Source: Phoronis australis
Taxonomy: Eukaryota > Animalia > Phoronida
Length of the DNA: 64,000 nucleotides
Direction: 5' to 3'
Assembly (NCBI GenBank): GCA_002633005.1
Contig: NMRA01000029.1
Coordinates: 1,274,086 to 1,338,085, forward strand
The translations under genes were made by a program, and so were the position numbers. The notes under the pieces were generated by a model that was not told the origin of the DNA, made no database searches, and saw nothing but the letters and a program-made list of their open reading frames with translations. This document shows, piece after piece, positions 27,808 through 61,709 of the stretch. Positions within the stretch are counted from its first letter, which is position 1; each line of letters opens with the position of its first letter.

Positions 27808-27951
27808 GAAATTTTGATATACACAACTTTCCATTTGCACTGTGTCTGTTTCACATTGTATGATTGTGAGACGTGTGGCTTCAATGGCGACGTTGTTCTT
27901 CTCCGAAGATGCAGCTGTTCATAGCCTTGCTTGAACCTTTTGGCATTATAG

Positions 27952-28218
27952 ATCTCGATACTATCAAGGAACTCAAATTCACAAGTCGGACATCATCGTC
28001 ACTCTCTGTATCATGGGGTCACGCTGACGGAATGAAAGAGGGATACAATGTCACTTGTGATTCAATACAAGGCGATACGACGTCCACTCAATTTTTATTG
28101 ACTACTGCACTGAGTGCGGAGTTTACCAATCTGCCTCCAGCTACAGAGCACGTAGTTACTGTGGCAACTATGCTTAAAGGCTGGACTGAAGTGTTCAAAT
28201 CTGTGACTGCAAAAACCC
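27952..28218 (+). CDS. Gene A exon: FN3 domain #6
   Basis: Acceptor attatAG|AT and donor ACCC|GTATGT; phase 1-1, 267 nt. Peptide SSLSVSWGHADGMKEGYNVTC..EFTNLPPATEHVVTV. Confidence 0.88.
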
Positions 28219-28496
28219 GTATGTGTACGTGATGCTCTATATTCTATCTTTCACGTCCTACACAGAATGTGCAAACGGTAGGGTCTTTATTCAATAGAAG
28301 TTGTTCTACACAAATACATTGTTGTTGTTACTGAATGTTAATTAATCTTCAAAACCTTGAACCTTTGCTTGTAAGAATGTTCCATAAGTGCAAATGCGGA
28401 ACGAGCAGTGATGTTCGAAGATAGCATCAAATGTATAGGCCATGAACACCATTCCCTCCAGAAATTTTTAACGTCATCACGCCTGGTCTCTTACAG

Positions 28497-31400
28497 TGGT
28501 CACACTCCCGATGGCAAGGACAACTTCATCAATGTCTACCGTCGCTGAGGAGCCTACTTCGAAAAGAGCTGTCCAAAACTCGTCTATGTGCCAAAAACAT
28601 AAGGGCATTCGACTGTGCCCCAGCGTCGAAGTGATTTGCGTGAGAAACTGTATGAACACGCGTAGGGAATTCATACGGGAAGACCGCACAACGCAACTAG
28701 TGGCATCTTGTAACAATTGCGTTCATTATAAGATTATATCATATGACTGGCAGGTTAGTTTTGGTCGTGCTAAAGCCAGCCCATTCAACACCCTGAATCT
28801 AAACGATGGGGAAAGAAGTAACCCTGTCCTTGAACTAATGCCCGGAATCCTGAAGTCTGACTACGTGTATACATTTTCGGTAAATGTTCTGGTTGGAGAC
28901 ATAAAAGTTTCAAATTACTACTCTGCAGTAGCCAGGAACGCGAAACTCATGGCAGGAGAATGTATCATAAAGCCAGGAAAAGGCAATGAGATCTTCATAG
29001 ACTTTGTTATAACTTGTACACGTTTCAAATCTAACTCTGATGGAGAATCGGAGCTTCAGTACATTTTTTATTCCGCCAATGACCTAACTAATGACGACCA
29101 AGTGATGTTTATAGGAGAATCGAGAAAACCGAGTTTTAGTGGGAAGTTCCCATTCACAGCAGGGACTCGGAACTACGTCAGAGTTGTTGCGAAGGACTCT
29201 CATGGTAGCCGAGTCGTTAAAGACACTGACTTCCCCCTCCCTAAAATCAAGAATGAATTTGATTTCGCAAAATTTTTGGTAGACCTGATTAAACCTAATG
29301 GAAACTCTTTGAAAAAACTGGAAAAACTTCTCTCAGCCGGTAATGTAACAGAAGTTGCGCAAGTAATCGACTACAGTAGCTGGTTTTTGAACTTAGATTC
29401 ACATCTGATTAGTGAATTTGAGCGAAACAGAATTCGCGATTACCTCATTGAGACGCTGGACAAACTACCAGTTTCCACCCTTCCGAGAGAACATGCTACA
29501 TCGGCTCTTTGGAAATTAACATCTGCCTCGCAAATTTCCAAGGATTCAGGTGCGACAGCGGCCAAAGTGTTAAATAAACTAGTTAGTTCTTTCAAGAAAA
29601 CGAAAGCCGTTGATGTTGAGAGAGAAGAATCAGAATACAAATCCAGGGATTTCCTTCAGATTGCAGGTAACATAGTAGAAGGGGCTCAGAGAGCGTTACG
29701 TGTCGTCGGAAATAAACATATCGACGCTCAAGATAGCAGGAAATTTGCTAAAGCAATGTTAAAAGCAGTAGACAACATTGCGACCACTTTTCTCAAGGAA
29801 AAAATGCCCGGGGAGACACCAACCCGGGTGGTTACACAGTGTGTTGGAATACACATGGATTTGAAAAAAGCTGCTTATATTGGAAATAATGTGAGCTTCG
29901 ATAGCGGAACACTGCAAATAGCCGGCGGCAATGCAATGATCATCGAGCAGTATGGTGGGGAGTTCGAAGTGGCGACAAAGTCAGTGTGGTTCCGGGAAAA
30001 CCCGTTCACGTTGCCTTCGACGTCTAGCAATTTGACTACTGGCATCTTATCCGTGCAATACATTAGCGCCTCAAGCATGACTGAATTACACTTGAAATCA
30101 AGAAACAAAAACGACTCTCTCATCGAATATGAACACGATTTACACGTGGAAGAGAACAGTGCAATGTCACGTATTAATTATTCCATTCGGGCGGCCTGCA
30201 AGAAACTCAGCGAGAGAAATCCATGGGAAATAATCAAAACAAGACTGAAGATTGAAAGAGGGGGTATTATTCGATTACGTTTTCTTAATGTAAAAGAGAT
30301 AAGCTTTAACGTCCACATTGTTGCAAAACAAGATGATGAATTTGAAATTGTGAACAAGACTCTAAAGAAAAGCGACAACTTTACCGTTTCAATATTCAGC
30401 AAGAACATCAGTCATGCTAAACATGATGATAACGACGAATACGAATCATTCTCATTGCAAATACTCCCAATTTATGACAACTCCGATTCTCGATGCCAAG
30501 AAATAAAAGATGTAACGACTGTTGGTGCCAGCGATCAAATGGTTTCGATTGACGTTGAAGTATGGTCGCTCACTTGCCTATACTGGGACGACAGAATCGA
30601 CGATTGGAGCAGTGATGGGTGCAAGCCTTCCCAAAAAACTACAACCAAAACGTTAATCTGTGTCTGCAATCACCTAACTGTATTTTCAGGGCGTCTCTTA
30701 AGAATGCCCAACGTGCTGTATTTTGAAAAGACATTGGCGCTCTTTACCACAATAGATAAAAATCCAGTGACGCTTATAGTAGTGTGCTTTGTTTGGGCTA
30801 TGTACCTCTTGACTGTACCTTTTGCAAGGTATTTAGACAAAAAATGCGAGAAAATAGTTTTCGTTTCTTTCCTTGAAGATAATGAACCATCTGACACTTA
30901 TGCTTATTTGGTAATTCTGCTCACAGGTTGGCAAAAGGAATCTCAAACCACTGCTAATGTTTACATTACGCTAGTTGGGCATAGAGGTGTCGGTATGGCG
31001 CATCATTTGACAAGAAACGGAAGCCAATTTATCCCCCGTGGAACGGAAAGCGCCTATATACTCATGAACAGCAAACCACTCGGATCTTTGATAAAAGTTC
31101 GCATCTGGCATGACAACAGTGGCAACTCGCCGATGTGGTATTTGCACCAGATCTTTGTAAAGGATCTCCAGACGAGGGAGGTGTGGTACTTCCTCTGCAA
31201 CAACTGGCTGGCATCCGACAGAGGTGATGCTGCAACGATGCGTGAACTTTCTGTGGCAACAGACGAGGAGATGACGCGATTCAAGAATATTTATCCTGTG
31301 CACATGAGACGCGGAATTCACGATGATCATCTGTGGTACAGCGTTTTCAGTAGACCGCCAGAAAGTCACTTCACTAGCGTGCAACGGTTGTCTTGCGCAT

Positions 31401-32215
31401 TTATGCTTATGTTTACTACCATGGCGGCAGACATAATTTTCTTTCAGTTGCCCAGCGAGTTAGTTGAAGACGCCAACGACATCTCATGGCAGGAGCTTTT
31501 GACCAAATGGTGGCTCGTGTTGCTTGGTTTCAACACAAATGTTGTAGTACTGCCCGTGGACATTGCCATGATCTCAATGTTTCGGTGCATCAAACCAAGG
31601 CATAGTAGCATTCGTTTCCTCGAAATACCTTACAATAATGACACTACAGAGTTTGTGGACGACCTGACGACAAGTGAAAACGTGAGTGAAAACCGAACGC
31701 TGGCTGAGACATCCGTGATATCAGACTTCAGTTCTTCGAGCGCGAGAACGACTGACGTCAATGTAAATTTAAATAATAATCCAGATACCACCACAGGATG
31801 TGACGATGGAATTGACCACACCAGTCACGAATCTTCTAATAGAGTAGACACACCGACAAACTCCACGGATGTAACAAGTGGGAACAGAAATGTTCAGTGG
31901 AAAATGACAGAGCCCCAAATACATCAAGGACCTGGGACAATAGCGCGAGAGAAATGCTTAAACTGTGGTTTACCATGGTGGACGATCTTTATTGCATGGG
32001 GCTTGCTTTGCACAATATGTGTTGCGTCTACTTTCTTTACAATTCTATACGGGCTTCAGTACGGCTATAGAATAAGCTTAGAGTGGCTAACAGCGTTTAT
32101 TTTAGGTCTCTTCTTCAGTGTATTTTGCATAGAACCGATGAAAACATTTTTGGTTATTCTGGGGATGACACTGTTGTTTAGGAAGCCAGTGGCTTTCTCC
32201 AATCGATCACTCTAA
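28497..32215 (+). CDS. Gene A terminal exon: polycystin-1/PKDREJ-like core (S/T linker, partial REJ, GAIN/GPS, TM1, PLAT, TM2-5); no channel domain
   Basis: Phase-1 acceptor tctcttacAG at 28495-96, open 3.7 kb. REJ-type GECIIKPGKG..FVITC; GPS CLYW..WSSDGC..CVCNHLTVF; TM1 VTLIVVCFVWAMYLLTVPFA; PLAT YLVILLTGW..TTANVYITLVG..VRIWHDNSGNSPMWYL..FLCNNWLA; polycystin motif HLWYSVFSRPPESHFTSVQRLSC; TM4 LPWW.. and TM5 ..EPMK. Confidence 0.93.
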
Positions 32216-32219
32216 TAAA
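32214..32219 (+). promoter_or_regulatory. Candidate polyadenylation signal overlapping the gene A stop codon
   Basis: tAATAAA spans the TAA stop. Further AATAAA copies occur at 32375 and 32385, inside the adjacent transposon. Confidence 0.4.
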
Positions 32220-32338
32220 TCATGCTACAGTGCTTGCAAAAAATTTATTTTATGTTAAAAGGAAACGTATATGCAATAATTATTAAAGCTGCCATCGTTT
32301 CGCCCTGAGTACATGGCTTAAAACGACAGTCAAATTAA

Positions 32339-34669
32339 GGTGGGACACTACACTGATTTTTCAAATTTTCGTTAAATAAAAACCAATAAAGATAATTCTT
32401 TGAAATTTGGACTGTGTTTACATTCTACCAAGATGAGCTTGAAAACACATTTTGGTGTTGTTGTGATAAATGGGGTCAAGACTAGGAGTGAAAAGCTGAA
32501 AATTAAACTTCGCAATTTGCCCCTACCAGATTTATTTTTTCTTTTTCGTTTTTTAACATGTTCAGAGGTTTATTATGTTGTTAAAAGGCTTTTCAACACA
32601 ATAGTGACATTTTCATCAATGAAAACAATTTTCAACAAGTTTCTGAGAGTTGCAAAATTCATCAAATTTTTTTCAGAACCCGGTTATCTCCACAAATCAT
32701 GACAAAACTCAAAAACTATAGATATTACAAACTTCTAACGTGCACCATTGTATTCAGTAGCCTGTTTTACATACACATGCCAAGTTTCAAGAGCATAGGG
32801 GGTGTATAACCTATTTTTCTCGTGGGGGCAAGTTGAAGACTTACGATAAAAACGGCGTTCTGCGAACTCGCAAGTTACAAAAAAATAACAACATTGTAAC
32901 GTCATGGTTAACTTTCACTTTATTTACAGGTGTGTTTATGCTTAGTAATTCTTGAAACAATTATCCAACAGTCTGACACTACATTCAGAATCCTCCAGGG
33001 ACATATGAAATACATTCCCTGGCCTGCTGATTAGTCCTCGAAGCCCGCTTGGCTTTATCGATTTCTTCTCGCCATGTCATTGACTTGTCCGTCACTTTCT
33101 ATTTGAGTTTAGTAACTCTAAGTACATTGCTACTGTCAACATAGTCCTCCTCCAGCAACCACATCACTTTATTTCAAAAAACTTTCCAAGCTTCAGAGAC
33201 GACATCCCATAGGCTACAGTGCCTCACGACAAACAGGACAGTGTGAGATGTGACGCACTTCCCACCCGCTGGGTGTCCTCATCCATAACTGACAACTGTA
33301 AAAATTTGGAAAATTGAAATGTAAAATTGTTGAATATTATGTTAAACAGTTATCAATGCTAACTGGAGAAATAATTGGTATCATGGTTTTCGCAACACCC
33401 AGAAGCATTGACAACTGTCATTAACGTACTAATGGAACGTAAAGCTTTGAAGAATACAAACCGGATAAAACACTATCTAAGGAACATGAATCAGTTTGAA
33501 ATTGTATTGCTATTATATCACAGGCCTTCAGTTGACTTTTTTACATCCAATAAGAAGCAGTAAAATGGGTTATTAATATACTGAATCGAACACGTGTCAA
33601 AGCTGGAGGAACGTGTAGTAGACTTGGATTTCTCCACCAAGACTAGTTACTGACTGCAACGATAATGTACAACATCTAAAACAAAACAACACAACCAACA
33701 GAAGCAGCTGCTTACGTGTGTTGTGTCATTGGGGAGCAGTATTTGAAACCGGCAACTTACCTTAGGCATATTTCTATGCTTGCATCTTGAACAATCAGCC
33801 TCATGCACTCAATTCGCCTAACTTCACCAGGAGATTTTCAACAGCTGCATGGTCTGTAGTTTTATCGGCACTGATTTCCTGTTTTTACCGAGTCGTCCTC
33901 AAAAACACTCAGTTTTCGTTTGGACGCAGAGTCTTTCGTCGGTAAGCTACATCGACGAGTGTTTCAAATGGTCTGACCTGAAGTTGTCGCCGATATGATT
34001 TGGCCACCAAAAGTTTATTTGCTCCAAAACTTCCTTTTTTACGGCATGGTTTACATTTCCCATAACCATGGGATGCTTTCAACTTCGTTTCAGTCTCTTT
34101 TGAAGTCATAATCCAACAGTATTTCAAAAAACATCCGATAAAAAATACCGATTGAGATCGAAAAACAGCTGCAAAATGGCGCTTGTTACTATGCTGTTTC
34201 CATGATCAGAAATAGCCGAAGTTACCCACGTGACTCGCTCGTCCAATTAAAATGCTAGAAAGCGACGTCATTGCCTATGAATATCCGTTAGCCAATCAAA
34301 ATGATGAAAAAAGTTTATTTTTAGCAGCAGTTCCTGGAAAGTACACAAGTATTATGAATGAACCTAAGGGGAATTCTGAAAATAGAGGACATGACCTTTC
34401 TAACAGCGTACAACATGGCGGTGTCGGAGGTCTGGAACTGCCGTGGACAAGCTGTTGTTTTGTACAAAATTAGGAGACTAAATGCGTTCAAACCAAAATT
34501 TTTTGGAAGGGTACGTTTGAAAAACCGAGGAATTCAATAAAAAAGGTTAGTTTTACCACTTGTTGGACTACAGAATATTGATTTAGGATGATTATAAGGA
34601 TCGAAAATGAGAAAATCTCAACTGTCAAAATAACATCAAAAATGGTAAAATCGTTTGTAGCGTCCCACC
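32339..34669 (-). mobile_element. Kolobok-like DNA transposon relic
   Basis: ttaa-GGTGGGACACTACACTGATTTT at the left end pairs with the reverse complement GGTGGGACGCTACAAACGATTTT at the right end, followed by taa. Purine-purine termini at a TTAA site. Weak minus-strand peptide MDEDTQRVGSASHLTLSC near 33240-33290. Confidence 0.65.
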
Positions 34670-36021
34670 TAATTTCAATTTAATTACAACGGTCTCATAA
34701 TAAGACCACAAAGCTGCGTATTTGAGTATGCATTGCTGTGACTTGATTTGTTCACTCATTTGTTGATATCTGTAGGGATAGTTTATATGAAACTTCAAAA
34801 TTATCCGCTGTATAATTTGACTGTTCAATGACGTCACGGTAAATTGTTCAACAGTAACAATGTGGGGCGTGATAATGCAACGTCGTAGTTGCTGTGATGC
34901 CTATAACTTTCATGCTTCTGGGCCTGATGACCGTGGCACTGTTTTAACATTCCAAAAACGCTTCAGTTAAGAGTTCGGCAGTGAAAGCTAAACAACGACG
35001 AAATGCAGCTTTAACAAAATTTACAAGTTGTTACAAGTTGGCTGTACCATCGTGTTTGTATATGCCCATTTAGTACTTTGGTTTTCTCTTAGATGCAAAA
35101 TGCACGCATCGATATATTTTTCTTTCTAAAGCTGCATTTTCACGAGCATCTTGAACATGTTTAAGCTTGGGCGTTTTAAAATCATCGTATCAGAAAAAGC
35201 TTAAAAGGTGGTAGTCAGTAAACCAACCCTTAAACAAGGTTGGAGTCTTTACAATAAAAGTGTAGAATATCACACTCGAATTGCGTATTAAATATTAAAC
35301 TTTATACCACATTATCAGCCAAACATGGCCAATGCAAACGTTGAATAACCCATTTAACGCGTATTGAATTTTGGCGGGAAACGGAGGTCGGTTCCAAATC
35401 CGTTTCGTTTTTTAGAGTTTCCAGCAGTGCACTTGACTAATGCTCTATACAGCAACTGGCGTCATCGTACTTGAAAATAGACTACCTAAACGAGGACGCA
35501 CAATAATCGCATATTCAACAAATGATAATTTACTGACATTTTTACGTTGTAAAAATAACATACACATTTTCAATAAAAACGACATTTTTAATTCAGGAAA
35601 ATTTAGCAGACTTGTAAATCGTCGATCTCCAGTTAAAATGCAGGTAAAATGTCGCCGAGATCCTTTGACTTGTGCATTATGCTCAGAAACCAGTGGTAAC
35701 CTATTTTAACAACCGATATTTTCACGGTGGAAGCTTAGCACGACAAGATGCATAGTAAGCGAGACTAGTTGCTTAAATCTTATTTTATGGATTCACTTTA
35801 TTTCTATTTTATTTATTAAATTTCCAATTGGTTCTTAGTAAAAGCATTATTTGAACAAAAAGAACTCGGCGTTTCTTAAAAGGTCACGACCTCCGATTCT
35901 GGGGCTCTGGCATAGAGAGCAGTTACAAGGCTGAGTTGAGTCGAGAAAGGTTCATGTACATGTAGATCGATTCATTGCAATGTTTATCGTTCAGTAACCA
36001 GTGTGTGTTATGAATTGATTA

Positions 36022-36260
36022 TTAGACGTTTCAGTCCTTATCCCTAACGTCCCCGGGCGATAATTCTCCAAAATTCACTTGATCTCTAGATTACGGATGA
36101 TAACGACTTCCCTCATAAAATAGATATAGATTATTACATGGCGATGTCGTTATCTCCAGTAATCTACTGTAGAGCCCAAGGGACGTTGGCCCCCGAGTTC
36201 GATAATGCTACTAAATCCCCTCAGGCTTTAGATAAGGGGGTAATGACTGAGAACACGTCA
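36022..36260. mobile_element. Palindromic MITE-like element
   Basis: gacgtttcagtccttatccc pairs with ggggtaatgactgagaacacgtc. Inner arms tagattacggatgataacgac and gtcgttatctccagtaatcta. Confidence 0.55.
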
Positions 36261-39200
36261 TTATCTATATCATATACTGCCTAAATTTTGACATAAAGAT
36301 AAAGTTTTGCTTGTTTAATTTTGAGAATCATACACACGACATATTTTCACAACTTGCTTTTATGAAACATAAGTTATACATACAAAATTTTCAAATATGA
36401 ATATTCAGCAGCATTGGATTGAATATCTGCAATCGGGATGGAGTTTGAACCCGTATGGTAGGTGCTAACCTTTCCGTTTTGAGATGTGAATCGCATTTTA
36501 CTTGGAGTTTTAACTAATTATAAAAATCCGCATTCCGATGATTTTCTGAAAACTCCGTACTTTCAAGCTAACAAAATCCCCATTTTATTGTCTTCAAAAT
36601 CATGGAAAATTGGGTGACATTGATTTTTTATTCCGACACATTCAGCACTTCTTATTGGATGCTGCGCGTGTTTGTTTTGGAAACTGTCATTCAAATTATC
36701 ATGTTCTAAGTAACCAATCAGAGAAATCCAAGAGAAGCCCACGTGCGGCGACCATGGTATTTGTAAAAAAATGTTGGATGGAATGAAAGTGAGGTTTACA
36801 AACGATGTAATTGAACACAGTTATTCCATATTTTAGACCATCTTTAATGGTTCTTTCTGTGAATTGATAAAACGTTATTTGCCTACGATTTTTGCCGTCA
36901 GTTGGCGTCACCAGTTCCCTGCATCTATCATTTGTTGCAGCAATGGCTGACTAAACAAAGACAAGGAAATGTCGTTTTAGGCAACTTCATTACCCTGAAT
37001 TACGAGGCGAATTTTCTAAAGAAAGCCAAAGGCGCTACATATTTGGAACTAAAATGACCATGTGATGCCGATTGAGTTTTGGAAGTTTCTTTGAAAGGAG
37101 TTGACAGCGTGTAAAGGACTTGACTGTCTAATCCCATGTAGTGTTTTAACATTAAAAACTTAAAAGTTGTGCTACGATTGAAGGGACATGCACATTCCTC
37201 TTACAGGGAGTAAGTGGAATTATTTACGTTTGCTTTTTAATTCGTTCAACGTTGCAACATAAGGTATGCAACTCACTGTATTTGATTCATTGTTCCTGTC
37301 AATACACTATGATCCGCATTTTTACATAAAAATCTACCAAACAACATGTACTTAAATCAATTAGGGCTTGGCACCTCTGGGCCATTAGACATAGGGCTCC
37401 TGTTTATCATATTTTATTATAGATGCAGATAAGTTACCCCACCATAACATGTATGCAAACTTGCTTTTCGGAATAGAAAATTGGTGAAGATAAAGAATGC
37501 TTATTTTTATTTTTTTGTCACCATCTTGAGTTTATGTTTTAACATTTAAAAATACTCGTCAGATTTGAATGTTAGTGATAGCAGTGGGTTGCTCTCTCTT
37601 CAGAATCACGGACTTAACAACATCATGTTTATCGTACTCATTGAAGTAGTTCAAGAATTTAATGAATTCAAAATGACTAATGGGGCCATTTTCAATATGA
37701 TCTTGTGTTATCCCATTTCCAATCGGTCAGATTTCGAATGACTTTTTTAATAATCAATGTGTCCAGTGTGTGACTACAAACCGTTTGTTGCAATACCCGT
37801 GGCCAGGTAGATCCTAAATTGACAACGTTAAAACTCCATCCAGGTTCACAAAACCACGAGAAAACGACCTTTATTTTGGAATGGAAACCGTTTCAATTCT
37901 AGATAAATCCCGAAAAATAAATATAGGAAATGCCCCTTCCGCATTGTCAAAATCGTATTGCGCAAGTCCATTACATAAATAATAATTTTTATTATTCGAT
38001 TTCTGTTGTATACCCGTTTACAATATTCTCCATGAAACATTGAGATACCATTTTAGTTTACAATTTGATTTTTCAAACTGTATTCACTGAAGAAATTACA
38101 TATTTGTAGGTTACTGGCACTCTCCCAAATACACTGTAGAGTTGGACCAGCCATTCACTGAGGAGCAGACGAGACCATTATAATTTGCCAGGAACGACAT
38201 GTGGAACGTTGATAGGTCTTTCATTTGATCTGACAGTGTTGGTTTTTACAGTTTTTGGTTTTCAAAGTTACCGAATCGACTCTCTTAAATGGAAAAAATC
38301 AGGGAAAAGCCAGCCGAGCTCACGGCCCGACTTGTTGGCCCTGCGAGTCAGCGCTTGTTCTGTGTTCAGATCGAGTCGAACTTTTGTAGACTGGGTCGAG
38401 GGGGTCGTGGGTCAAGGAGGTCGTGGAGTGTGAGGGTCGAGCGAGTTTGAGGACAATCCGTTTTTAGCAAATCAGCATTACTACAGAGGTATGTTAACAA
38501 ACAGTGTTTAGAAATAGAAGATCACTTGCAAAAGCATAATAATGTAAATAACATTGATAAAACTAAGTTCATGTTCCTTAACGTTACTAAACTGTAGCAT
38601 GCTGAGAAGTCCGCAGTGATAGCCTTTTTCGATACAGTAATTCAGACATACACGCCGTCATGTCGCACAGATAAATCGTGTCAAGGATTTATGAATTTTC
38701 GATGCAGTCCTACGATCAAGTAAGACTCCGGTATGCATGTATATTGCAGCATAAACTGGGAAAATGTCAACTTGTATTTTCATTTTTACTGTTACAACCC
38801 TGCGAACTAGTTTAAACGACGGCGTACAGTGTATGTATCGTAATTGTCTGTTTTAATTCATCATGATACCAGTTGTCATCAACGTATATTTGCTTTGCCA
38901 GTTTGGATATGGCTTTGATGCTTTAAGGAAGATTTCAGTTTAAGTGTCATTACTTCAACCTTTGAAATGTTATCCTTGTGAGGGTGTGATAATAAATGTA
39001 AATTTGGTTTTCAAAAATTGAGTTTTTACAGCAACTTCATCAAAAGGACCGACCGGAGGCACCGAAATATTAATACCCTGGATTCCGAGTGGCTAAACGT
39101 GGTCTTGCCATACTTTGTATGCATCTTAATCATCTCGTTTCCATGGCTCTTATAGGGTAAGTGTTAATGAATTGATTTGACCACATCGAAAAAAAACTTT

Positions 39201-40208
39201 GATTTGTCTCCCCCTGTTTAAAGTAGACTCAGCGGTGTGCAGAAGTATACAAAAACATAAGAGACGCAAAGAAAAGACGCATTCAGTGAGATATGGCCAG
39301 GTAAGTGAAGGTACGTTTTCTCACAGATAAAGCTAAATAACAGGTTAACTATACATGTAAATGTGCCCAAAAGGACTCGATGTCGTTTACAAATACATAT
39401 TTGAATGTAAGATACGATAACCTCACAAAAATTCTGTTTACAGTCCACAACCGCAGATCCTCAGCTATGTAGGCATTTTCTATTGCAGCATAAGAGCACA
39501 TCAAATCACATGCTTTTGTGTGTCTTTTAGAATGCATTTTCAGTAATATAAACCAATACATTCTGCGATTAACACACCATTTTATGAACAAAGACAGTGG
39601 TCACGTCCACTTACCCCGACTGAATTGGATCTGGTACATACCTCACCCATGATAATTTTGCGAAATGTATTCTGGACACTTTCAATCCATTCATTTATTG
39701 AATTCCCGAGCCACTGCCCAATATCGTAGATTCGTATATAAGATCTTGTCAAGTAAATCACATTACAAATAGAAGTACAGGGCCGTAGGAATCGGGGGGC
39801 CGGGGGCACGTCCCCCAAAATTTGTAGGCGTCATGGTTAAACCGTGGCAACCGACATAGGCGTGGGGACGCGGACAGTCGAGAAAAGACTGAGAATACGG
39901 ATTAAGAGAGAAAATTCAAGAGAACATTTAACAACTCAGTATCAGTGCATGGCTACACTTCGAGGGCCCTGGCCAGAATATTGTTGTTAGGGTCTCTGTT
40001 TTTGCAGCACTTGAAAACGTGCACTTAATGATCCGTATTATGTATTTCGAAAAATCGAGAACATTTGAAATTCAATAACACAATCTTGCGAAAGCATAAC
40101 TATATTTTTCCAAAGGCTCCTACGGACAACGGAGACGACTGCCGTTCTATTTTTTTCTCGAAATTGTATATCACTTGAGAAAAATTGAAGACCTGACAGA
40201 AAACATCA

Positions 40209-41781
40209 ATTGCTGCGCATTTCCTGATCTTTTAAAATATATATATTTTCATCTTTAGGGACCCAACCCTTGAAGAGGGTTATTGATGACATTCAAGTGG
40301 CCACCATTTTCGTGTTTTTATTGACAGATTCTTAAGGGACCGCTCACGGAGAGAGAACCCAACGTTGGCATCGATTACCTCTATTTTTCTGTTTTGTATA
40401 TCGAACAACCGGCTATCATGTCGACGAAGGTCTTTTCTTGCATACGAAAATAGAATTGAGTGGCACCCTTTTCCAAGGATAATGATGTTTAGCCTTTCAT
40501 CTTTGTCTCCCATTTCAGATGAGACCCTCTCTCGGTGGGGCGGCTCGGGGGAATTGTACCTTTGTTCCTCTATGCACGTAAATCCGACACTGCCAAGTAT
40601 TCACGAAGGGAAGTTAAGACTCCAAATTCATTAAACACAAAACATTCGTGTACAACACAGCAGTATCAAGACATTCGAACCAAAAAACCAAAAAACGTGA
40701 AAAATACAATAAGATTTACCACTATCGAATAGGTGGAATTTTGAAGAACTTGAAGATCACTATTTGTGAATTAAACAAATTACACAAAATGACAATTTCC
40801 GGCGGTTATATATAACATAATGTTACTTTTCACATAGTATCACAAGAATAGTATTTCTTTTGAAGATCGTTACTAGGAGTTTTTTGTAAGGAATTCGCAC
40901 ATGTTGAACAAGCTGTCAGGGCCACGATTTGTGATGACCGTGCAATTGTCGAATGGGGGTACTCAAACTACTAGAAATCATAAATAAAGATTGGAGTTCA
41001 AGTTTAACTCGTGAACGGTTATACTTACTTTTGAACAGAGCAAAGATACACTTTAATTTGAATGCCCTATCTCCTATGTTCCCCCAGATACCCCTAAAAT
41101 CTGCAAGCATGCTTATAACATTTCGTTTTCATAAACAAACTCTTTGGTTTCAGATTTGCATGTTTATGTATCTAGGAAAATCGACAGATTCATGGATTAT
41201 TTTTGCAATTAAAAGATAATCTTGTAAGAATTCGTGATGTTTCAGTGAATTTAGTTGCAGCCTGAAGTTGGAAAAACTCAATAATCCTATACCCAAATAG
41301 TAAAGTACATTTAGACGATTTCTAAAATAACTGTCAAAGACATTGATGAAATTCGGACAGTTCCCAAAAATATACTCACATTTCAAAGGACAATAAAAGC
41401 ATTGTTTTTTGAATTGGGCACATGACTGGTTATTTAAACTTACAAACAACAGATTCTAAAGGAATTAAGTCATGAAATCAAAGTAAAGGCATCGCTAATG
41501 GAATGATTGTTGGCTCCTGATTTGCATATTTATTATCCACAAAAACTCGACTAATAGATTATTTTTGACAATTAGAAGCTAATCGTGTAAGAAACGGCGA
41601 TGCTTCGCTGAACTTAGTTGCAAGCTGACATTGTGAAATTTCGACCTATCATCAGTTTCTCAAATAGCAAAGTATACTAAACGATATTTGTCGAACTTGA
41701 AAGCCATCTCAAGGGTACTGATGAATGTTGGACAGCTCTGCAAAGTGTACAAAAATGTTTTCACAATTGCGTGGCAATAAA
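40209..41781. repeat. 1.57-kb direct duplication, copy 1
   Basis: Runs from attgctgcgcatttcctgatc to gcgtggcaataaa and is repeated right after the single n at 41782. Confidence 0.95.
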
Positions 41782-41782
41782 N

Positions 41783-43354
41783 ATTGCTGCGCATTTCCTG
41801 ATCTTTTAAAATATATATATTTTCATCTTTAGGGACCCAACCCTTGAAGAGGGTTATTGATGACATTCAAGTGGCCACCATTTTCGTGTTTTTATTGACA
41901 GATTCTTAAGGGACCGCTCACGGAGAGAGAACCCAACGTTGGCATCGATTACCTCTATTTTTCTGTTTTGTATATCGAACAACCGGCTATCATGTCGACG
42001 AAGGTCTTTTCTTGCATACGAAAATAGAATTGAGTGGCACCCTTTTCCAAGGATAATGATGTTTAGCCTTTCATCTTTGTCTCCCATTTCAGATGAGACC
42101 CTCTCTCGGTGGGGTGGCTCGGGGGAATTGTACCTTTGTTCCTCTATGCACGTAAATCCGACACTGCCAAGTATTCACGAAGGGAAGTTAAGACTCCAAA
42201 TTCATCAAACACAAAACATTCGTGTACAACACAGCAGTATCAAGACATTCGAACCAAAAAACCAAAAAACGTGAAAAATACAATAAGATTTACCACCATC
42301 GAATAGGTGGAATTTTGAAGAACTTGAAGATCACTACTTGTGAATTACAAACAAACAAATTCCACAAAATGACAATTTCCGGCGGTTATTTATAACATAA
42401 TGTTACTTTTCACATAGTATCACAAGAATAGTATTTCTTTTGAAGATCTCTACTAGGAGTTTTTTGTAAGGAATCCGCACATGTTGAACAAGCTGTCAGG
42501 GCCACGTTTTGTGATGACTGTGTACTTGTCGAATGGGGGTACTCAAACTACTCGAAATCATAAATAAAGATTGCAGCGTTTTTGGAGTTCAAGTTTAACT
42601 CGTGAACAGTTATACTTACTTTTGAACAGAGCGAAGATACACTTTAATTTGAATGCCCTATCTCCTATGTTCCCCCAGATACCCCTAAAATCTGCAAGCA
42701 TGCTTATAACATTTCGTTTTCATAAACAAACTCTTTGGTTTCAGATTTGCATGTTTATATATCTAGGAAAATCGACAGATTCATGGTTTATTTTTGCAAT
42801 TAAAAGATAATCTTTCAGTGAATTTAGTTGCAGCCTGAAGTTGGAAAAACTCAATAATCCTATACCCAAACAGTAAAGTACATTTAGACGATTTCTAAAA
42901 TAACTGTCAAAGACATTGATGAAATTCGGACAGTTCCTCAAAATATACTCACATTTCAAAGGACAATAAAAGCATTGTTTTTTGAATTGGGCACATGACT
43001 GGTTATTTAAACTTACAAACAACAGATTCTAAAGAAATTAAGTCATAAAATCAAAGTAAAGGCATCGCTAATGGAATGATTGTTGGCTCCTGATTTGCAT
43101 ATTTATTATCTACAAAAACTCGACTAATAGATTATTTTTGACAATTAGAAGCTAATCGTGTAAGAAACGGCGATGCTTCGCTAAACTTAGTTGCAAGCTG
43201 ACATTGTGAAATTTCGACCTATCATCAGTTTCTCAAATAGCAAAGTACACTAAACGATATTTGTCTAACTTGAAAGCTATCTCAAGGGTACTGATGAATG
43301 TAAGACAGCTCTGCAAAGTGTACAAAAAAGTTTTCACAATTGCGTGGCAATAAA
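41783..43354. repeat. 1.57-kb direct duplication, copy 2
   Basis: Same start and end strings as copy 1. Differs by SNPs and short indels, for example it lacks most of gtaagaattcgtgatgt and gains gcagcgtttt. Confidence 0.95.
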
Positions 43355-46300
43355 TTGTTTATTGACTTAGAAAGTACATCAGTGGTTTAAATTAGTTGAT
43401 GGGTTGACTATTAATTACATTTCTTCGTTTTTTTCATGATTTCTAAGTGAGATTTAGCCCAACGAACATAGCATGAATGCGTTTGATTTTTTTCAGTTGA
43501 ACTGTAGCCACACGAGGAGTCCTTCAAGGTGTTAACGTCACTGCTGCATGTCACAAAGTAGTGTGTGTGTATGTTTTGGAGCCTCTTTCAGAAACTAAGA
43601 AATCGACTTGGCATGACCACATGGCAATAAAAAACAGTGACACTACAACAAGCAAGACCTTTACCAGCCCTATGATTGACGCGTTGCATGCGTAAAGAGT
43701 TTTTTTACCAATGTAGTAAACCATAACATGAAGCATCGTGCTCAGGAACCAAGTCGATTCAGTGTCCTATCTGGATCAACGTTTCACCGAAAGAGTAAGC
43801 CTGATGCAACACTACGTCACAGCACGAGGACACTCCTTTTTGTGGTGAATGTGGCATGTCATGCAAACAGTATGCCTCCTTCTACAGGCATAGCAAGCAG
43901 AAATGTCATGAATGAAATCATTACGTCCAGTGGTGAAGGTTGTTAAGTCACTATAGTTTATTCAGATTTACGGAGTTTATGGTTGGCAGTTGTCTGATGT
44001 GATGGTAATTTGACATTTTGTTTTGAACCTTTTTTCCGCAAGTTTCTTTCTATATTTGTGTTATTTCAGAAGGATCTTTAACAGAATCAGTACAATTTTG
44101 TAGTGTTTAAGTAGATTTAAATGGCATACAAAGTGTCATTGGGTAATAATTACATACAATTGTTCTGACCAGTTAGTAATTTAAAAGAAAACATATGTCT
44201 ATGATTATTGTAGAAATTTCTTTCATGTTGTTGTTGAAATCCTGCGAGAGACTATTATACTATCAATCACTCCTAAGTACCTTGCCTATGATTCAGTGAT
44301 GATTTAGTCTAATACATTCCAAAAGTAATTCGTTGGAAATGTTTAATGGATTTGTAATATTGATATCTCTAAAGCAATCTTTTATATATTTTTGTAAGAC
44401 CAATTTTGAGGTATGTTTAATAAAGGATTAATATTATAATAAAAATGCTATAATATTGTTGTTCATTTCCTGTGTAAATCACTACAGTGTGTAGTTGAAG
44501 TGACGTTAATGACAACATTTTGACTACGTTTTAAGAAAATCACAATTTAGTAGGTGTATTATAACTGTCTCAATCTTTTCAATGTCACATTAAACTGGAG
44601 ATCGTGAACTGGAGATGCAGGTGAACTTAGGACCAAAACTACAAAACAGAAGAGTGAAAAACAACGTACATTCAAGCCACACGCCGGGTGCCACAAGTCA
44701 ATCTGTTCTTCTCTGTGTCGATGTTATCAGTAAAACATCAAGTAAAATCCAACCCGTTTTATCAGCACACCAGTTTACACAACTTCTGACCAATTTTTAG
44801 ATCCCAGGCCTTGGGCAAGCTCATCGTCATTCTTTGACTTCACTGGCTACTTGTTTCTTTCCTTTTGCTGTCACAATTTTACAAGAAGATTGTACGCTCA
44901 TCTGCTGCAATAATTTGTTTACCCCTGGCTGACACGCAACATGGAACAACTCCTGGGTGAGTCTTCAGTTTAAAACCCATTGTTCTCAGTGGTTTTGTCT
45001 AAATGTAGATGTTTGTATTTCAATTCCTGGTTGGATGTACCTTCACGTCGTGGGTAACATGTTCGTTGAAGCTCGCCTCACAATAACAGTGAACTTATTT
45101 CCTGAAATGAAAATAAATTCGTTTGTGAAACTTAAATTATGCTTGACGTTTATGTAGTTTCCATGGCAAATAGAAATATGCTATGCTGTTGTTCAATTTT
45201 GATACGAAAATAACACAGTAATGACGCGAAATGTGATTAATTCATAGCACCACACTTATTTTGTAACCCTTTTCACGTTTTGTCAGTAAAAAGTTCATTA
45301 ATATTCGACACAACACGATGCGTTCCAGATCGCATAAACAACACCAATTTGCGTTCCCGATCGCTCACCGTTGCGTTTTCGATCGCATCTTTCTTTCAAC
45401 AGAAAAGCGTCGACAAATTAGAGATCCTGCAAAAAACAAGCCTTGCGTTATATTTTCACACGTCATTTCTTCATAACTCCTTGCTCAATTTATTGATTTA
45501 GTGCCAAAAATAAATGCAATTTGCCAGCATGACATACAAATCACCTTCGTCTCATGCGATGCCTTGCTCAACGTAATTTTTCTCCTGTAATTGGAAGAGA
45601 CACTAGCCTAAACCTCTACCTACCCTTCTTCAATGTGTTACGCCTTGAACTCATGTCTCTGTTTTCACATTGTAAGTAAAAACAACGAGAATTTATCAAT
45701 TTTACTCACCTTGCCTGGCTTCGTTTCTCCCCCCCCCCGACAAATTTCGTTCTAGATCGCCTTCCGGGGTGAGATTGGTATGAAAAGTAGTCGAGCATAA
45801 GTCTGCATTAATTACAAAAGTTCTTTAGCTGTTAGCTGTTCAAATTACTGAAAATGATCTTAAGCACTCATCAACATTTCCTATTCATGCAATAACTAAA
45901 CTGAGACAATTTACAAAAAACACCATGCCGTTTAAAACCTCCAAATTCCACCACTTTTGATGGGATGCTAAAAAGTTTCAAAATCGGCCATTTTAAGTCA
46001 ATTTCAAGTGAACTTACATTTCTATCGTGACTAGGGAAACTTCGAGAAAAACCTGAGAGAGTGATTTTTGTTTTAGGGATAAAATGCACTTTTAGTATTC
46101 AAGGTATAAGCCATGTTTCTGGAGCATTGAAAATCTACTTTAACCATCCATTTTTGTTTTTGGTGTGCGACGATAACAATTTCTATAACGTATACCTACA
46201 TGTACGTGTCACGAGCTTCTTCCCAAGTTATCTCCACTGTCATTATTTTAATAAGTAGGAACGAAAAGAAGGATACACTTGGACCCTGAGTAATTAACAT

Positions 46301-47776
46301 ACAGCGAGATTGCATCTCAATCGAACAGTTTCCAAAATGATTTTTCATAAGATCTTAGCGAAACACCATAATAGCTCCTTTCTTTTGCTTACGCATTCTC
46401 AAAGCCTCACAGCAGTTAAAAGACTATTTAATATGTTTTTATAGTTTAATGAGCGTTTCAGCAAAGACTATCACGCCATCATGTAGTGGTAATTTTAATC
46501 AGTTTCACTGATGAAGATGACACTTGTTTTGTAACATCTCAATAATTTTAATTTATCATGTGGAGAATGAAAAATACTGAACGTACAACCTTGCCAACCA
46601 GGCCCATAGGAAGCCAAAATTATTGGGGGGACAAGCCATTGCGACTTCGCCAAACTACCCCTATCGCCATCACCTCCCCCCACCCCGTGTTCCGGACGCC
46701 ACCATATTTGTACCGCACCTCCCACGTCCGGCCTAGCTGGGGGGCAATCCCGGGGATGCAACCGCCAAGAATTGAGTAACAGTGAACTCACACGGAGAGT
46801 AAGAACGAGCCTAGGACCAGTGCACATACGTGTAGAGAGATGTCTCAAGTAGCTGTAGCTTAGATCTATCAGCGTCAAAATACGAAATTCCCGACGAACT
46901 AAAGCTAATTGCTGGTAAGCTCAGTTATAATTCACTTGAGAGAGGCAGCTTAGCTCGTATACATTCGTCTGCGCTGATTCTAAGGTCAAGATTCGTATTA
47001 TTATGATCCATTGTCGGGAAAACTCCATTTTTATGGTCATTCTTTGAAGGTTTTTTTTGAAAAGGTGAGGTCCCGAGGTCCCTGGTATATAGTGCCTTTG
47101 AGGCTGTTTCAAAATCCCTCGTTGAAACAAGACCAGCAGCCCAGTTTCTGATTTGGGGGCAAATTGATACAGAGTGTTTCCCAAAAACGTACACACTGCG
47201 ACGCCTTCGACGCGTAAATAACTGAGATTAAGAGCGGACTCACTGCACGGCTACATGTTACTTTTAACTTCTGTCATCGATAATTTATACATACAAAATT
47301 TATAAGTTTATTGTTTGAGGGATTACATATTTTGAAACCGTCCATATGGTACCGTTATGTACAAGACACGTTTACTGTAATGAATCGCTCAGAAGTTGAG
47401 TACAGAATCACGAAGAATCATGCACTAATTTATGCAGAATCTATGCCGGACAATTAAGCTGATTAACAGAACAGCACAGGAGGCTAATTACATTCAAGCC
47501 TCAAGGCATTTCTTCCACAAGTTATGTGGCGCCAGATGCAAACTGTCGCTAGCAATAAATGAGAGTACCTACAGACAACATCGCGAGACAAGCAAGTTCC
47601 CACGTGACTAGACTTCATGCTACTAAGATTTTACGTCAACTGAGGTACTGGGGATGGGTTAGTATTCAGTCCAACAAACAAGCAATATTCTCTGTATGAT
47701 ATAATGGTAATTTAGTTTTCAAAATGGTCCTTACTACTACGACATTTGTAATCAATGTACAAAAGCTATTTCATAA

Positions 47777-50700
47777 TTACATGTGCGTGTCCTGATGTGC
47801 CAACAAGACTTGCTTTTGACGTCGGAACCTGAGAGGTCTCTTAAGAAATGCCGTTACAAATAACATCACGATTATTGTCTTTGCTGGTTGCAGACAACAT
47901 ACATTAAAAACTAATCCAACCAGAAATGCTACAAGCCAATTCAAACTCCGTTGGTAACCATATTGTAAACCGTACAAAATAATAATAAATGATGAGCCTA
48001 AACACACAACGGCGAGGAGAAACCACGCGATTATAACAATCCACCAAGGCAGAACACAACAATCTTTATCCTGCTTCTTTAAATCGTAGGTAATATCTGG
48101 AGAGATGTCTTTTTGGGATGCGATAGATTTGTGTGTACTATCATCACTTTGTCCTCTGTCAGAATTTTCCGTTGCGTGGATTCTATTTTTGCTTTTTGCC
48201 TCGACACAGTGAGTACTGTCGGTTACGTTATCATTACAAAAAACGACACCCGTCGTCCCTGTAGTTCGTTGTATCAGGGATTCTTGTCTTTCAATGCTGA
48301 AAGTATGTGACCCCAAATCTTCTGTCAAAACCTCAGAACTTTCAACCTCAATCCCATCTCTAATTGTGCAAACAGACGCGACTTTGTTTTCCTCACACAC
48401 GGGTTCGTCCAGAATGTGCGTACAGCTCAGTTCTTCCAACTGTCTCGTTATGTTTGCCTTTAACCTGGGTTTCGCAAATCGAAACAAAGACACAATCGCC
48501 ACCTCGAAAGGTAACACCATTATACACGAGTTAATCCCAAACAATATCATAGCCCAGTTGCTTACTTGCTTATCCACCGATTCGATGTGTGTTGACTCGG
48601 CCTCTATTTCAAAGCATGCAATGTCAACGAGCATCGTCGTCAACAAAACCATGCAAGCGCAAGATAACCGCTGAACGCAAGTGAACTGGCTTTCCACTGG
48701 CCTCCCAAGAATGCTATACCACAAGTGCTCGTCGTGGATTTCACGTTTCATTTCGATGATGTAATTATTTTTAAATGATGTCATTTCTTTATGCGTCGCT
48801 GCCGTAAGCTCGCGAATGTTCTTTCGGTTGCCTCTATCAGTTGACAGCCAGTCGTTGCAAATGAAATACCACGAATCTTTGTTGTGTACGTCTAGCACGC
48901 AGATGCCATGCAAATACCAAGCTGATTTTCCTTCAGGATTGTCCTGCCAAATGCGTACCTTTTTCAGCGTCCCTAGACATGTCTGTGTAGCTAAAACGAA
49001 CGCATGCTCCGTGCCTCGGACCAGTTTGGTATTGCTGGTTAAAAGGTGGGACAAGCTCACACCCTTGCTCCCTATCAAAGAGATGTAGATGTTTGGTGTA
49101 GTCGTGGAATTTCGTTGCCATCCGGGGAGGACGATAGTCACGTAGAAATGACTGTAGTCGGTTTCATTGTCTTCAAGATAAACGGTTGTGTTTATTCGTT
49201 CGCAGTTCCTGTCATTACGCCAAGCGAAAGGCAGAACGAGAAGGTACAGGAACCACACAACAGACACGACGACAACAACGACAGTGTTGTCTTTAACAGT
49301 ACTGAACAGTAGTTGAATTCTTTTAAAATACAACGGGTTAGGCAAATTAAAACAACCGGCTGCTACTGCAGTCAGATGATTACACTTGCAGACTAGAGTG
49401 CTCGAAGAAGTTTCCCGCGACGGCCAGCAACCGTAGTTTGACCACATGTCTTCTTTAATGTCAAAGTACTGACATTTAATTGTTTGTGCTGTATATTTAA
49501 TTTCTACAGAGGTTGCATTGGAATGTTTGCCATATAAGCAACGACTATTATTTTTGCCTAGTGACAGTATTAGTTCTACAGAAAAAGAATAAAGCAGGTG
49601 TTCAGAAAATGCTGTATCTTTGTCAGCATTCAGTTGCAGCCAAACCGTCCAATTGTTCGATGACGAAATATTTTCATTGAAGAGTGGTGCGTATTCCGTG
49701 CCGTCTTTAATCACTTGTCTCGCAATGCAACTAATTTTCAGGTCAAGATCTTGTGCATTTAGAAACTGGATCCTGACAGCATCAAATCTGCTGACAGTGA
49801 ATGTATTGGTCAGTGTTGGATAAGCTGGCGATCCGCATAAAGAGTGAATATAATGGTCAACAGAGGACACCTCGTCAGACTCTAACACACGTATATTATA
49901 AAGGAAGAGAGCAACGGGTTTATGCCGGTTAGAATTCACTTCTAAGACTCGATCGGTTTCCAATGTTCGGTATTCGACTGACATCACAGGCGTAGTAACA
50001 TTTTCAGAACCTTTCGACCAATGATAAGGGTTTTTGCGAATCCAAACTGATTTTGTGAGGATATCAAGCTCGCCTGCCTCGGGTCCAGCACGAATTGCAT
50101 TTCCATCGACTAACTGAAGAGATCCGTGTTGAAAAGTAACCAAACTTCCTAGAGAACCAGTCTTTTTCAAAACTATATTTATTTCCACATTATCTGCCGT
50201 TATCTGCGTGGCTTCCTCTCCGGAAATCTTGGTCCTTGCAATACCAGATGCAATAACGTCTATTATATCTGTAGCAATTCTCACGATGGATTTGTCATAC
50301 ATTTTTCGATTTTGACCGACGACTTCAAAAGAAGATAGCATTATGTCACTAGTCACGTTTAGAGCCTGTTTGTATGTTTCATATTCAATGTCAGCTGTCT
50401 TGACGTCGTTGCTTTTCAGGGTTTTGTTCAGCAAATTAAGCGCAGTTCTCGCTGCATTCTCGGTCTTTGTGTACTCCTTGTTTAAGGATGCCAGAGCAAA
50501 TAAGGCTCGACCGCCCTTCACGACAGACGACGGAAGTTTGTCTAACCCAACTAGAAGTTCGTAACGAGCTTGTTCAAATTCACTATCTTCGTCATTTGTT
50601 TCGTCTATAAAACTAACAAGATGATTAATTAAATGTAGCGCTTCCTTAAACCTTCCGTACTTAAAATGTGTCTTCAACGGGCCGTCCACTGTGAGATGTT

Positions 50701-51327
50701 TAACATACTCTCGAACACTGACGCCATACTGAATTTCCGGAAAGTTAAATTGCTTAGACAACACAGATCCAAACATGTCTACAGCGCCTACACGAATATA
50801 GTTGCCATTGCACTTTATCTTTGAAAATTGTCCTTGGAAAATAGCATTATGGGACTGTCCTAGAAACAAGGTATACGCATTCTTGCAAACAACGGAATAA
50901 AACTTGTAGTAGGCAACACTTCCGTTGAAATTCCAACCAAAACCGGAGCAATTGATCGAAAATTGAATAAAGTATTCTAGGTGCTCTTCTTTGTGAATGT
51001 CGCAATTTCCTTTAACCGGTCCATAGTTCTTGACGGCAATTGTAACGTTACCGCCAGCATTGGCCGAGACAATGGCAGCCGTTATAACATAATCAGTTTC
51101 TGGTTTCAACGAACTACCATCGACTTCGAAGATATTCATTTCCTTTCCTGAAGTACTGAACACCACTCCTGTCGTGCCCAAACGTTTGTTAGATATTTTC
51201 CATTCGAAAACTAGTGGCGTAATATGACTACAGTGGACACAGGTAGCTTCAAGCTTGAACTTGCCATCAGCACGAGAGTATCGTCTTCCTTCGCCAACAC
51301 AGTTCCTCCGACAAACAATCTTAACAC
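47777..51327 (-). CDS. Gene B terminal exon: polycystin-1/PKDREJ-like core (partial REJ, GAIN/GPS, TM1, PLAT, TM2-5); no channel domain
   Basis: Phase-1 acceptor ttctcAG at 51329-28. The frame extends the listed ORF upstream with GVKIVCRRNC..LEATCVHC..FEW, homologous to gene A SVEVICVRNC..LVASCNNC..YDW. GPS CQYF..WSNYGC..CKCNHLTAV; PLAT FYVTIVLPGW..NIYISLIG..VRIWQDN..WYL..FICNDWLS; HLWYSILGRPVESQFTCVQRLSC; LPWW..; ..QPAK. Confidence 0.93.
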
Positions 51328-52057: not shown

Positions 52058-52336
52058 TTGTTTTGATCCCACGTTGGAGAGTAGTTACAAGGATTCCCTC
52101 GCTAGTAACTTCATCAAATCCTTTCTTCATTGTTGTGACCGATATTGTGTACTCGCTATTGGGTAGAAGGTCTTTACAGCGTGCCCACAAACTGGCAGTG
52201 AAGTAATCTTTCTTGTTTCTCGTATTTACACAGGTTAACCTGTATCTGTCAACGTTTCCGTCGGCACGAGACCATGAAACCTTAATGGAATCGGACCTGA
52301 TTTCCTTCACGGTGATGTCTTTCACTTTGGCAAGAC
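52058..52336 (-). CDS. Gene B exon: FN3 domain (membrane-proximal)
   Basis: Acceptor ctttcAG|GT and donor ACAA|GTTAGC; an alternative phase-1 donor would end the exon at 52073. Peptide DSIKVSWSRADGNVDRYRLTC..RCKDLLPNSEYTISVTTMKKGF. Confidence 0.85.
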
Positions 52337-54910: not shown

Positions 54911-55159
54911 CTGTTTTGACATCAATCTCCATTTTTATCGGCTGGAAATGCTCATGGATTGTATAAACTGCGATCGTGTAGACACTGCCCGAATCAAGTT
55001 GCTCACAGTTTGCACGGGTGGCTAATGGGCCTAAAACCACATTTCCTTTGGGGCACAAAACCTCCAAACCCTCTCCAATTGCGTTTTCGGGTAAGCTCCA
55101 ACTCAGTACAACCGAATCTTTCAAGATGTCGGAATCCAGGTTAAAAACAGCTTTCAGAC
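54911..55159 (-). CDS. Gene B exon: FN3 domain
   Basis: Acceptor cttgtAG|GT and donor ACAG|GTAAAG; phase 1-1, 249 nt. Peptide DSVVLSWSLP..LEVLC..ANCEQLDSGSVYTIAVYT. Confidence 0.85.
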
Positions 55160-61464: not shown

Positions 61465-61709
61465 CTGGAAGAAATAACGACTAGCTGTGCTTCCTACTGC
61501 TACGATATTGAGCGCTACGTCGGCCGCTGAAAATGACTCACTTCGACATAGGGCGAAATCAGAATGAGAAGCCTTATTAAGCCACGTAACGAGAGTCATT
61601 CCGACGACGGTTTAACTTTATAAATAAAAAAACGGTTACATTGTATTATTTCATGTCATATTTGGTAAGAGTCGAAATTAAATTGAAAACGTGCTGTACC
61701 AGTCATTAC

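Follow-up and report, generated by a model that had tools for sequence, protein, structure and literature searches.

We identified two convergent genes, A and B, related to the kidney-disease receptor polycystin-1 (PC1) in a 64,000-nucleotide (nt) window of Phoronis australis contig NMRA01000029.1 (coordinates are positions in this window, read with the standard code). Both genes encode the front half of a polycystin, comprising part of the REJ region, a GPS, a PLAT domain and five transmembrane helices (TMs), and both stop shortly after TM5. We consider it highly probable that A and B are true channel-less proteins. The architecture and a functional example, s-Themis-A of Ciona, are already in print, and A and B extend this known theme; judging from the trees described below, they have an origin of their own, separate from the teleost form, and carry unusual FN3 and kringle heads.

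Genes A and B end shortly after the fifth transmembrane helix

The two long frames of the window, which face each other, extend from stop to stop over 28472-32215 on the + strand (gene A, 1247 amino acids) and over 51352-47777 on the - strand (gene B, 1191 amino acids). They can be aligned end to end, with 32% identity by tblastn and 34% over aligned codons. Pfam matched the C-terminal part of REJ in both frames (E 8.9e-11, above the cut-off, in A; E 0.0013, below the curated cut-off, in B), together with a GPS before TM1, above the cut-off in both, and a PLAT domain directly after TM1. Neither frame had a Pfam match to Polycystin_dom or PKD_channel. The GPS cleavage motif, HL|T, is intact in both genes.

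The hydropathy of A and B and an AlphaFold model of the C-terminal 607 amino acids of B (57 sequences; mean predicted local distance difference test score 77) agree on five membrane helices, the first of which precedes PLAT. The model consists of GPS strands, TM1, an all-beta PLAT, TM2-3, a disordered loop and TM4-5, and its fold matched lipoxygenase PLAT domains and PC1 chains (Foldseek against PC1 chains: ~510 columns, E 6e-08, TM-score ~0.3). Alignment of A with human PC1 (PDB 6a70, 8z6f and related) gave a match over PLAT-TM3 with an E of 1e-37, a weak match over TM4-5, and nothing beyond. The stop lies 11 residues (A) and 21 residues (B) past the TM5 boundary set in this analysis. These two tails are dissimilar, no linker-like residues follow TM5 in either protein, and neither has a C-tail with the G-protein motif and coiled coil of the 11-TM polycystin-1 type.

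An earlier, sequence-only reading of this DNA had described two long frames running from part of REJ through GAIN/GPS, TM1 and PLAT to TM2-5, with a stop soon after; the frames, Pfam, hydropathy and the B model agree with that description, the C-termini it quoted match both frames, and the domains it had predicted (GPS, PLAT, five TMs and no PKD_channel) are those found. The REJ part, the GPS, the position of PLAT and the tree placement put A and B in the PKD1/REJ family, and the order REJ-GPS-PLAT, the five TMs and the stop after TM5 give them an s-Themis-A-type architecture. RNA evidence in the following list comes from three raw runs (X1, X2 and X3; tissues coded), about 18-19% of each of which was read.

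Gene A
28497..32215, + strand, last exon, 3719 nt, no intron (frame, Pfam, hydropathy; RNA reads in X1 and X2)
28619-29224, + strand, partial REJ; GAIN lies between REJ and GPS
30572-30688, + strand, GPS, with HL|T at 30671-30679
30767-30829, + strand, TM1
30908-31219, + strand, PLAT
31388-31450, + strand, TM2
31511-31591, + strand, TM3
31607-31951, + strand, variable loop between TM3 and TM4
31976-32056, + strand, TM4
32078-32179, + strand, TM5
32213-32215, + strand, stop

Gene B
47777..51327, - strand, last coding exon, 3551 nt to the stop, no intron (read depth 5-12, splice joint at 51327)
51319-50939, - strand, partial REJ; GAIN lies between REJ and GPS
49477-49361, - strand, GPS, with HL|T at 49378-49370
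49282-49217, - strand, TM1
49141-48833, - strand, PLAT
48670-48608, - strand, TM2
48556-48479, - strand, TM3
48043-47960, - strand, TM4
47944-47843, - strand, TM5
47779-47777, - strand, stop
47300..47776, - strand, likely 3' untranslated region (binned depth and AATAAA at 47312)

Transcription and 3' ends of A and B

We observed transcription of A and B in two of the three runs (X1 and X2); the RNA contig set of the species covers only repeats in the window. Sense-strand depth over the B last exon was 5-12 in X1 and X2, and 0 in X3, and almost all B reads had one mate orientation, which fixed the strand convention. A variant 14 nt before the B stop was covered by 9 and 8 reads, and the bin that holds the stop (47335-48001) had mean depths of 4.6 and 5.4. 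Were the reads to terminate at the 47780 donor, which overlaps the last codons of B, the coding part of this bin would need depths of 13.8 and 16.2, above every B bin, indicating that reads continue past the stop. The following bin had a depth of less than 1, and 464 nt downstream of the stop there is an AATAAA, at 47312. We conclude that the B mRNA most likely ends in a 3' untranslated region of ~0.5 kb.

The statement in the sequence-only reading that there is no strong donor near either stop holds for A, where no donor above -1.9 was found from residue 1160 to the stop (last 90 codons). It does not hold for B, where the donor at 47780 is plausible, scoring 1.8 on a rough matrix versus -0.2 to 4.3 for four read-verified B donors. 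No joint leaving the last exon was seen among the loose ends listed, 18 of 142 for B and 24 of 98 for A.

The A exon is also crossed by antisense RNA:

27850..31674, - strand, antisense RNA across the A exon (X1 and X2 only; strand from the spliced reads of B)

Antisense depth reached 24 at 31146-31674, where sense depth was 0-2, and eight antisense molecules end at 31674, the likely RNA start. Many molecules end at the edges 31674 and 28018, and there is no AG exactly at either edge. This antisense RNA may regulate A. We treated an antisense frame at 30971-31459 as a shadow frame of PLAT/TM2.

No channel half in the window

We searched the 64 kb window for a hidden channel half. The C-terminal halves of homologues gave a best E of 0.28 by tblastn, and a profile of 60 channel halves gave a best E of 0.54 against 2841 six-frame fragments of the whole window. 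In a control, the same profile found 132/195 held-out 40-amino-acid pieces of 15 proteins at E<0.01, with at least two pieces detected in 13 of the 15. Between the genes, 121 frames of at least 45 amino acids had no Pfam match to a polycystin family. Channel sequence is thus absent from the 32.2-47.8 kb interval by tblastn, profile and Pfam. The sequence-only reading had seen only repeats in the interval, which is incomplete: there is an assembly joint as well. Tandem Repeats Finder reported one short array between the genes, and self-alignment showed two 1.57 kb copies, 95.8% identical, at 40209-43354, joined by a single N at 41782; these are likely allelic contig ends or an assembly overlap. 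A second duplicate, at 25092-27807, consists of two 1.09 kb copies (98.6%) around a 208-N gap, with a retroelement integrase zinc-finger remnant, and is also likely an assembly overlap.

Both copies are under purifying selection

Synonymous sites are saturated between A and B (proportion of differing synonymous sites 0.77), and the corresponding nonsynonymous proportion is 0.44 overall and 0.32-0.35 in the PLAT and TM regions. PLAT and TM2-5 are the best-conserved parts, with 47-50% identity versus 23-29% elsewhere; the extremes are TM4-5 (50%) and the TM3-4 loop (23%). From TM1 to TM5, with the exception of the loop, 68-77% of second codon positions are identical, as compared to 26-42% of third positions. 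That PLAT and TM4-5 have stayed ~50% identical while synonymous sites became saturated indicates that both copies are under purifying selection. Seven of the 14 RNA variants listed are synonymous (4/6 in A, 3/8 in B; P 0.025 versus an assumed 23%). At 105 positions conserved in 117 channel-bearing homologues, A keeps 80 and B keeps 76, within a distribution for the homologues that has a median of 91, a 10th percentile of 80 and a minimum of 55.

Relatives and origin of A and B

We fetched 164 proteins, of which 137 have the GPS-to-TM3 core; the 27 that were dropped were mostly multi-PLAT matches. A channel half follows TM5 in 117 of the 137, 10 end at most 60 residues past TM5, four end 66-81 residues past it, and six are without a TM4-5 match. 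A and B were sisters both in a 133-row FastTree tree and in an IQ-TREE analysis of a 34-row subset (LG+G4). In the IQ-TREE analysis the pair had a support of 100/100 and a long stem, and it fell in a clade of 12 rows (100/99); the remaining 10 all bear channels and include a Dreissena protein. Because A and B are sisters, the cut common to them is one inherited event, not two, and the simplest history suggested by the trees is a single loss of the TRP-like half in an 11-TM ancestor, followed by duplication. The sequence-only reading had taken the same cut in two paralogues as two signs of selection; it counts once. Its proposal of an old subfamily is supported by the long stem and the saturated synonymous sites, and is unsupported by species distribution, since word-indexed homologue searches and a full profile search found no close full-length relative and no orthologue in another species.

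The nearest clade contains invertebrate PKD1L2-like 11-TM polycystins (Dreissena P0005; P0041, P0047 and P0075), which have the same REJ-GAIN-TM1-PLAT-TM2-5 front as A and B. Beyond TM5 these proteins continue into TOP and the channel. A and B end shortly after this helix, and of REJ they retain the C-terminal portion alone.

Five proteins of a fish clade (P0002, P0003, P0011, P0029 and P0060) all share one end point, 25 residues beyond the TM5 profile. They are 46-65% identical and keep 92-96 of the 105 core positions, above the median 11-TM homologue. Three of the five are named teleost records, and the domain coordinates of P0029 are nearly those of the zebrafish partial pkd1l3 (PMC5318412). 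We infer from these sequence features that all five are pkd1l3. Teleost and gar pkd1l3 without the channel domain were read as a gene being lost (PMC5318412). The shared stop and the conservation of the five proteins fit selection rather than such ongoing loss. Like A and B, the teleost and gar partial pkd1l3 run from GPS through TM1 and PLAT to TM2-5 and stop shortly after TM5; by contrast, they have a C-type lectin head and no REJ part, and belong to a different clade. A single origin of A and B with three fish-clade proteins was rejected by the approximately unbiased test (p 0.0006), for a group that was named after the first tree was inspected and in the presence of long branches. We found no signature of channel-less forms: A and B share the loss of 18 positions, only one of which is also lost in all five fish-clade proteins, about as expected by chance.

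Several other records resemble five-TM proteins. P0036 (5-TM) stands beside the near-identical 11-TM P0041 and looks like an incomplete model. In P0018 and P0025 another PKD1-like gene follows on from the 5-TM unit, and P0018 has two GPS and two PLAT; both are likely fused models of tandem genes. With channel families skipped, Atlas returned two clusters (79 and 67 members; 0.94 and 0.89) of REJ+PLAT proteins about 1370 amino acids long, the few classified members of which are arthropod, possibly representing another channel-less group.

Upstream exons and heads

The last exon of A starts at 28497, at an AG acceptor, in a frame that is continuous with upstream FN3 exons; this start is a gene model only. 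The start of the B last exon, 51327, is shown by spliced reads. For B, RNA reads show four GT-AG introns, and the exons (joints at 61261, 55735-55478, 55159-54911 and 52336-52058, then the last exon) form one open frame into the 3551-nt last exon. The A model, which rests on splice signals (AG/GT ends and frame) and not on reads, has six phase-1 FN3 exons at 4683-28218, in frame with the large exon and with a single stop. No start codon was found in the window for either gene, and likewise no signal peptide for A.

Gene A
4683..4955, + strand, predicted FN3 exon (Pfam fn3, splice ends)
9292..9567, + strand, predicted FN3 exon (Pfam fn3, splice ends)
15097..15369, + strand, predicted FN3 exon (Pfam fn3, splice ends)
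16144..16419, + strand, predicted FN3 exon (Pfam fn3, splice ends)
19013..19300, + strand, degenerate FN3 exon copy, broken frame, approximate ends; adjoins a LINE endonuclease fragment
20993..21268, + strand, predicted FN3 exon (Pfam fn3, splice ends)
27952..28218, + strand, predicted FN3 exon, phase 1-1 (Pfam fn3; AG/GT ends, frame)

Gene B
52058..52336, - strand, FN3 exon (spliced reads, Pfam fn3)
54911..55159, - strand, FN3-like exon (spliced reads; Pfam fn3 E 0.0013, below cut-off)
55478..55735, - strand, kringle exon (spliced reads; Pfam Kringle E 1.3e-06, below cut-off)
61261..61480, - strand, exon with a likely discoidin/F5-8-type part (spliced reads at 61261; 5' boundary approximate)

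The most upstream B exon had no Pfam match; its Atlas leads were DDR1-2_DS-like and F5_F8_type_C, at 0.91. We found no paper on a polycystin that combines kringle, fibronectin and REJ, in literature searches that left most subscription journals outside. Four FN3 exons of A (9292-21268, + strand) are recent duplicates, with 57-62% protein identity to the 9292 copy, and a fifth, broken copy near 19013 lies beside the long interspersed nuclear element (LINE) endonuclease fragment at 18405-18995. Reverse transcriptase remnants lie in two frames at 59189-60036 (+ strand), inside the 5.5 kb intron of B. In both genes REJ to TM5 is a single exon of more than 3.5 kb, and the heads are one-domain phase-1 exons. 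This pattern suggests a core of retro origin to which exons were added later; if a short mRNA had been retroposed, both the intronless core and the cut after TM5 would be accounted for. PKDREJ is also described as intronless (PMC1934368), like the single large exon of A and B.

Discussion

The analysis supports the sequence-only reading in its central claim, that A and B are genuine 5-TM/PLAT receptors that have no channel, keep the GPS motif intact, are expressed and are under selection. The implied departure of this design from all known polycystins is not supported, given the descriptions of s-Themis-A, the teleost and gar pkd1l3 and the sea-urchin SpREJs. Ciona s-Themis-A, a sperm receptor for self/non-self recognition, has, like A and B, REJ, GPS, LH2/PLAT and five TMs and is without a PKD channel; it exists beside the 11-TM paralogues s-Themis-B and B2 (PMC9265791, PMC7018956). 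It is functional by targeting: disruption with TALENs (transcription activator-like effector nucleases) permits delayed self-fertilisation, such that the gene is needed for full self-sterility (PMC7018956). The s-Themis-A protein has a hypervariable N-terminal region, and its first intron holds the fibrinogen-like v-Themis in antisense; by contrast, the heads of A and B are FN3, kringle and discoidin-like. A and B resemble s-Themis-A in build, a likeness short of identity with s-Themis, and no s-Themis sequence was recognised among the homologue hits. Among the SpREJs, which have 0, 1, 2, 6 or 11 TMs (PMC1934368), SpREJ1, 2 and 7-9 resemble A and B as PKD1-family proteins that lack a channel and fall short of 11 TMs, but they have one, two or six predicted TMs, with lectin and PKD-repeat heads. 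The 11 TMs, TOP, pore, G-protein motif and coiled coil of PC1/PKDREJ are all absent from A and B. An abalone survey (PMC12980990) and a planarian survey (bioRxiv 10.1101/2024.07.17.603829) describe 11-TM or channel-bearing PKD1-likes.

We propose that A and B are self-cleaving recognition co-receptors that signal via a separate polycystin channel complex, a role for which we see about even chances. An 11-TM ancestor would have lost its TRP-like half once, the gene would then have been duplicated, and shuffling of phase-1 exons would have given each copy its own head (six or more FN3 in A; a discoidin-like domain, a kringle and two FN3 in B). The GAIN domain would cut at HL|T with the head staying attached, and the head would bind a surface or matrix ligand. 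The cytosolic PLAT would bind lipids and trafficking adaptors, as in PC1, where PLAT governs trafficking and binds phosphatidylserine, PI4P and arrestin (PMC9672506). In PC1, GPS cleavage releases a stalk whose action passes through TOP (PMC9171645), and the C-tail holds a G-protein motif and a coiled coil (PMC9672506). Since A and B have no TOP for the stalk, no G-protein motif and no coiled coil, they would depend for output on a partner that shares their membrane (an 11-TM PKD1-like/PKD2 complex), an arrangement suggested for s-Themis-A beside s-Themis-B.

Several observations weigh against our reading of A and B. Sense depth over A was 0-6 in X1 and X2, 0 in X3, and ~1.6 in the stop bin, such that a spliced continuation is possible, and antisense RNA over A was as abundant as sense or more. 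For both genes, a joint to an exon elsewhere may hide among the unlisted loose ends, and the DNA beyond the window could contain remote exons or an independent 6-TM gene. The long branches of A and B, and their place at the low end for conserved positions, also fit relaxed selection, and 5/8 of the listed variants in B and 2/6 in A are nonsynonymous. A v-Themis-like fibrinogen frame was found in none of the 124 intron frames scanned in the window, outside which the first introns may lie. A sperm role for A and B is an analogy only, as the RNA runs are coded.

All known output elements of PC1 (TOP, pore, G-protein motif and coiled coil) are missing from A and B, their short tails are unalike, and SpREJ1/2 have just one or two TMs, as might be expected if A and B were adhesion tethers, decoys or sources of shed ligand, in which the 5-TM/PLAT part only anchors and traffics the head and sends no signal inward. 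One helix suffices for an anchor, however, yet TM2-5 and PLAT are the parts best conserved between the genes, and we consider such a role unlikely. A split polycystin, in which a separate gene supplies a 6-TM TRP-like half that associates with A or B to restore the equivalent of PC1, would be consistent with the strong conservation of TM4-5 and with the position of the stop. This lies in the TM5-S1 loop, the site at which the natural PC1 fragment P100 is cut, and an isolated TRP-like domain, consisting of the last six TMs of PC1, is enough for channel formation with PC2 (PMC6832002, PMC9672506). We regard this alternative as distinctly unlikely: there is no 6-TM gene in the 64 kb window, and tblastn of four teleost genomes is reported to have found no extra pkd genes although pkd1l3 there is without the channel (PMC5318412).

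There is little chance that the transcripts of A and B splice on to channel exons outside the window or lost at an assembly joint. The plausible B donor at 47780, the single-N joint at 41782, the thin coverage of the A 3' end, and database "5-TM" entries that look incomplete, such as P0036, are consistent with an artefact of this kind. By the depth arithmetic, however, reads extend beyond the B stop, with AATAAA downstream, and between residue 1160 and the stop of A every donor scores -1.9 or lower. In addition, neither protein shows linker-like residues after TM5, the two genes are convergent, and the overlap that flanks the joint suggests that little DNA is missing there. Lastly, truncated but still transcribed relics heading for loss, as suggested for teleost pkd1l3 (PMC5318412), would fit the long branches, the antisense RNA over A and its one broken FN3 copy, but are highly improbable given two frames of more than 3.5 kb that are open while synonymous sites are saturated, the excess of identity at second over third codon positions, and the synonymous half of the listed variants.

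The co-receptor proposal leaves room for two broader readings, which together we hold to be doubtful: the PC1 front half may be a self-sufficient signalling receptor that has been re-isolated several times (in this lineage, in teleosts and in Ciona), or A and B may be receptor halves that dock onto a separate TRP-like half. If either were true, A and B would offer a natural tool for dissecting the contribution of TM1-5 and PLAT to PC1. The role of the first five helices and PLAT of PC1 is far less clear than that of the channel half, and natural proteins that keep only the front half under selection would serve as ready-made deletion constructs. Surveys baited with the PKD_channel domain, of which the planarian study is an example (bioRxiv 10.1101/2024.07.17.603829), would miss such genes.

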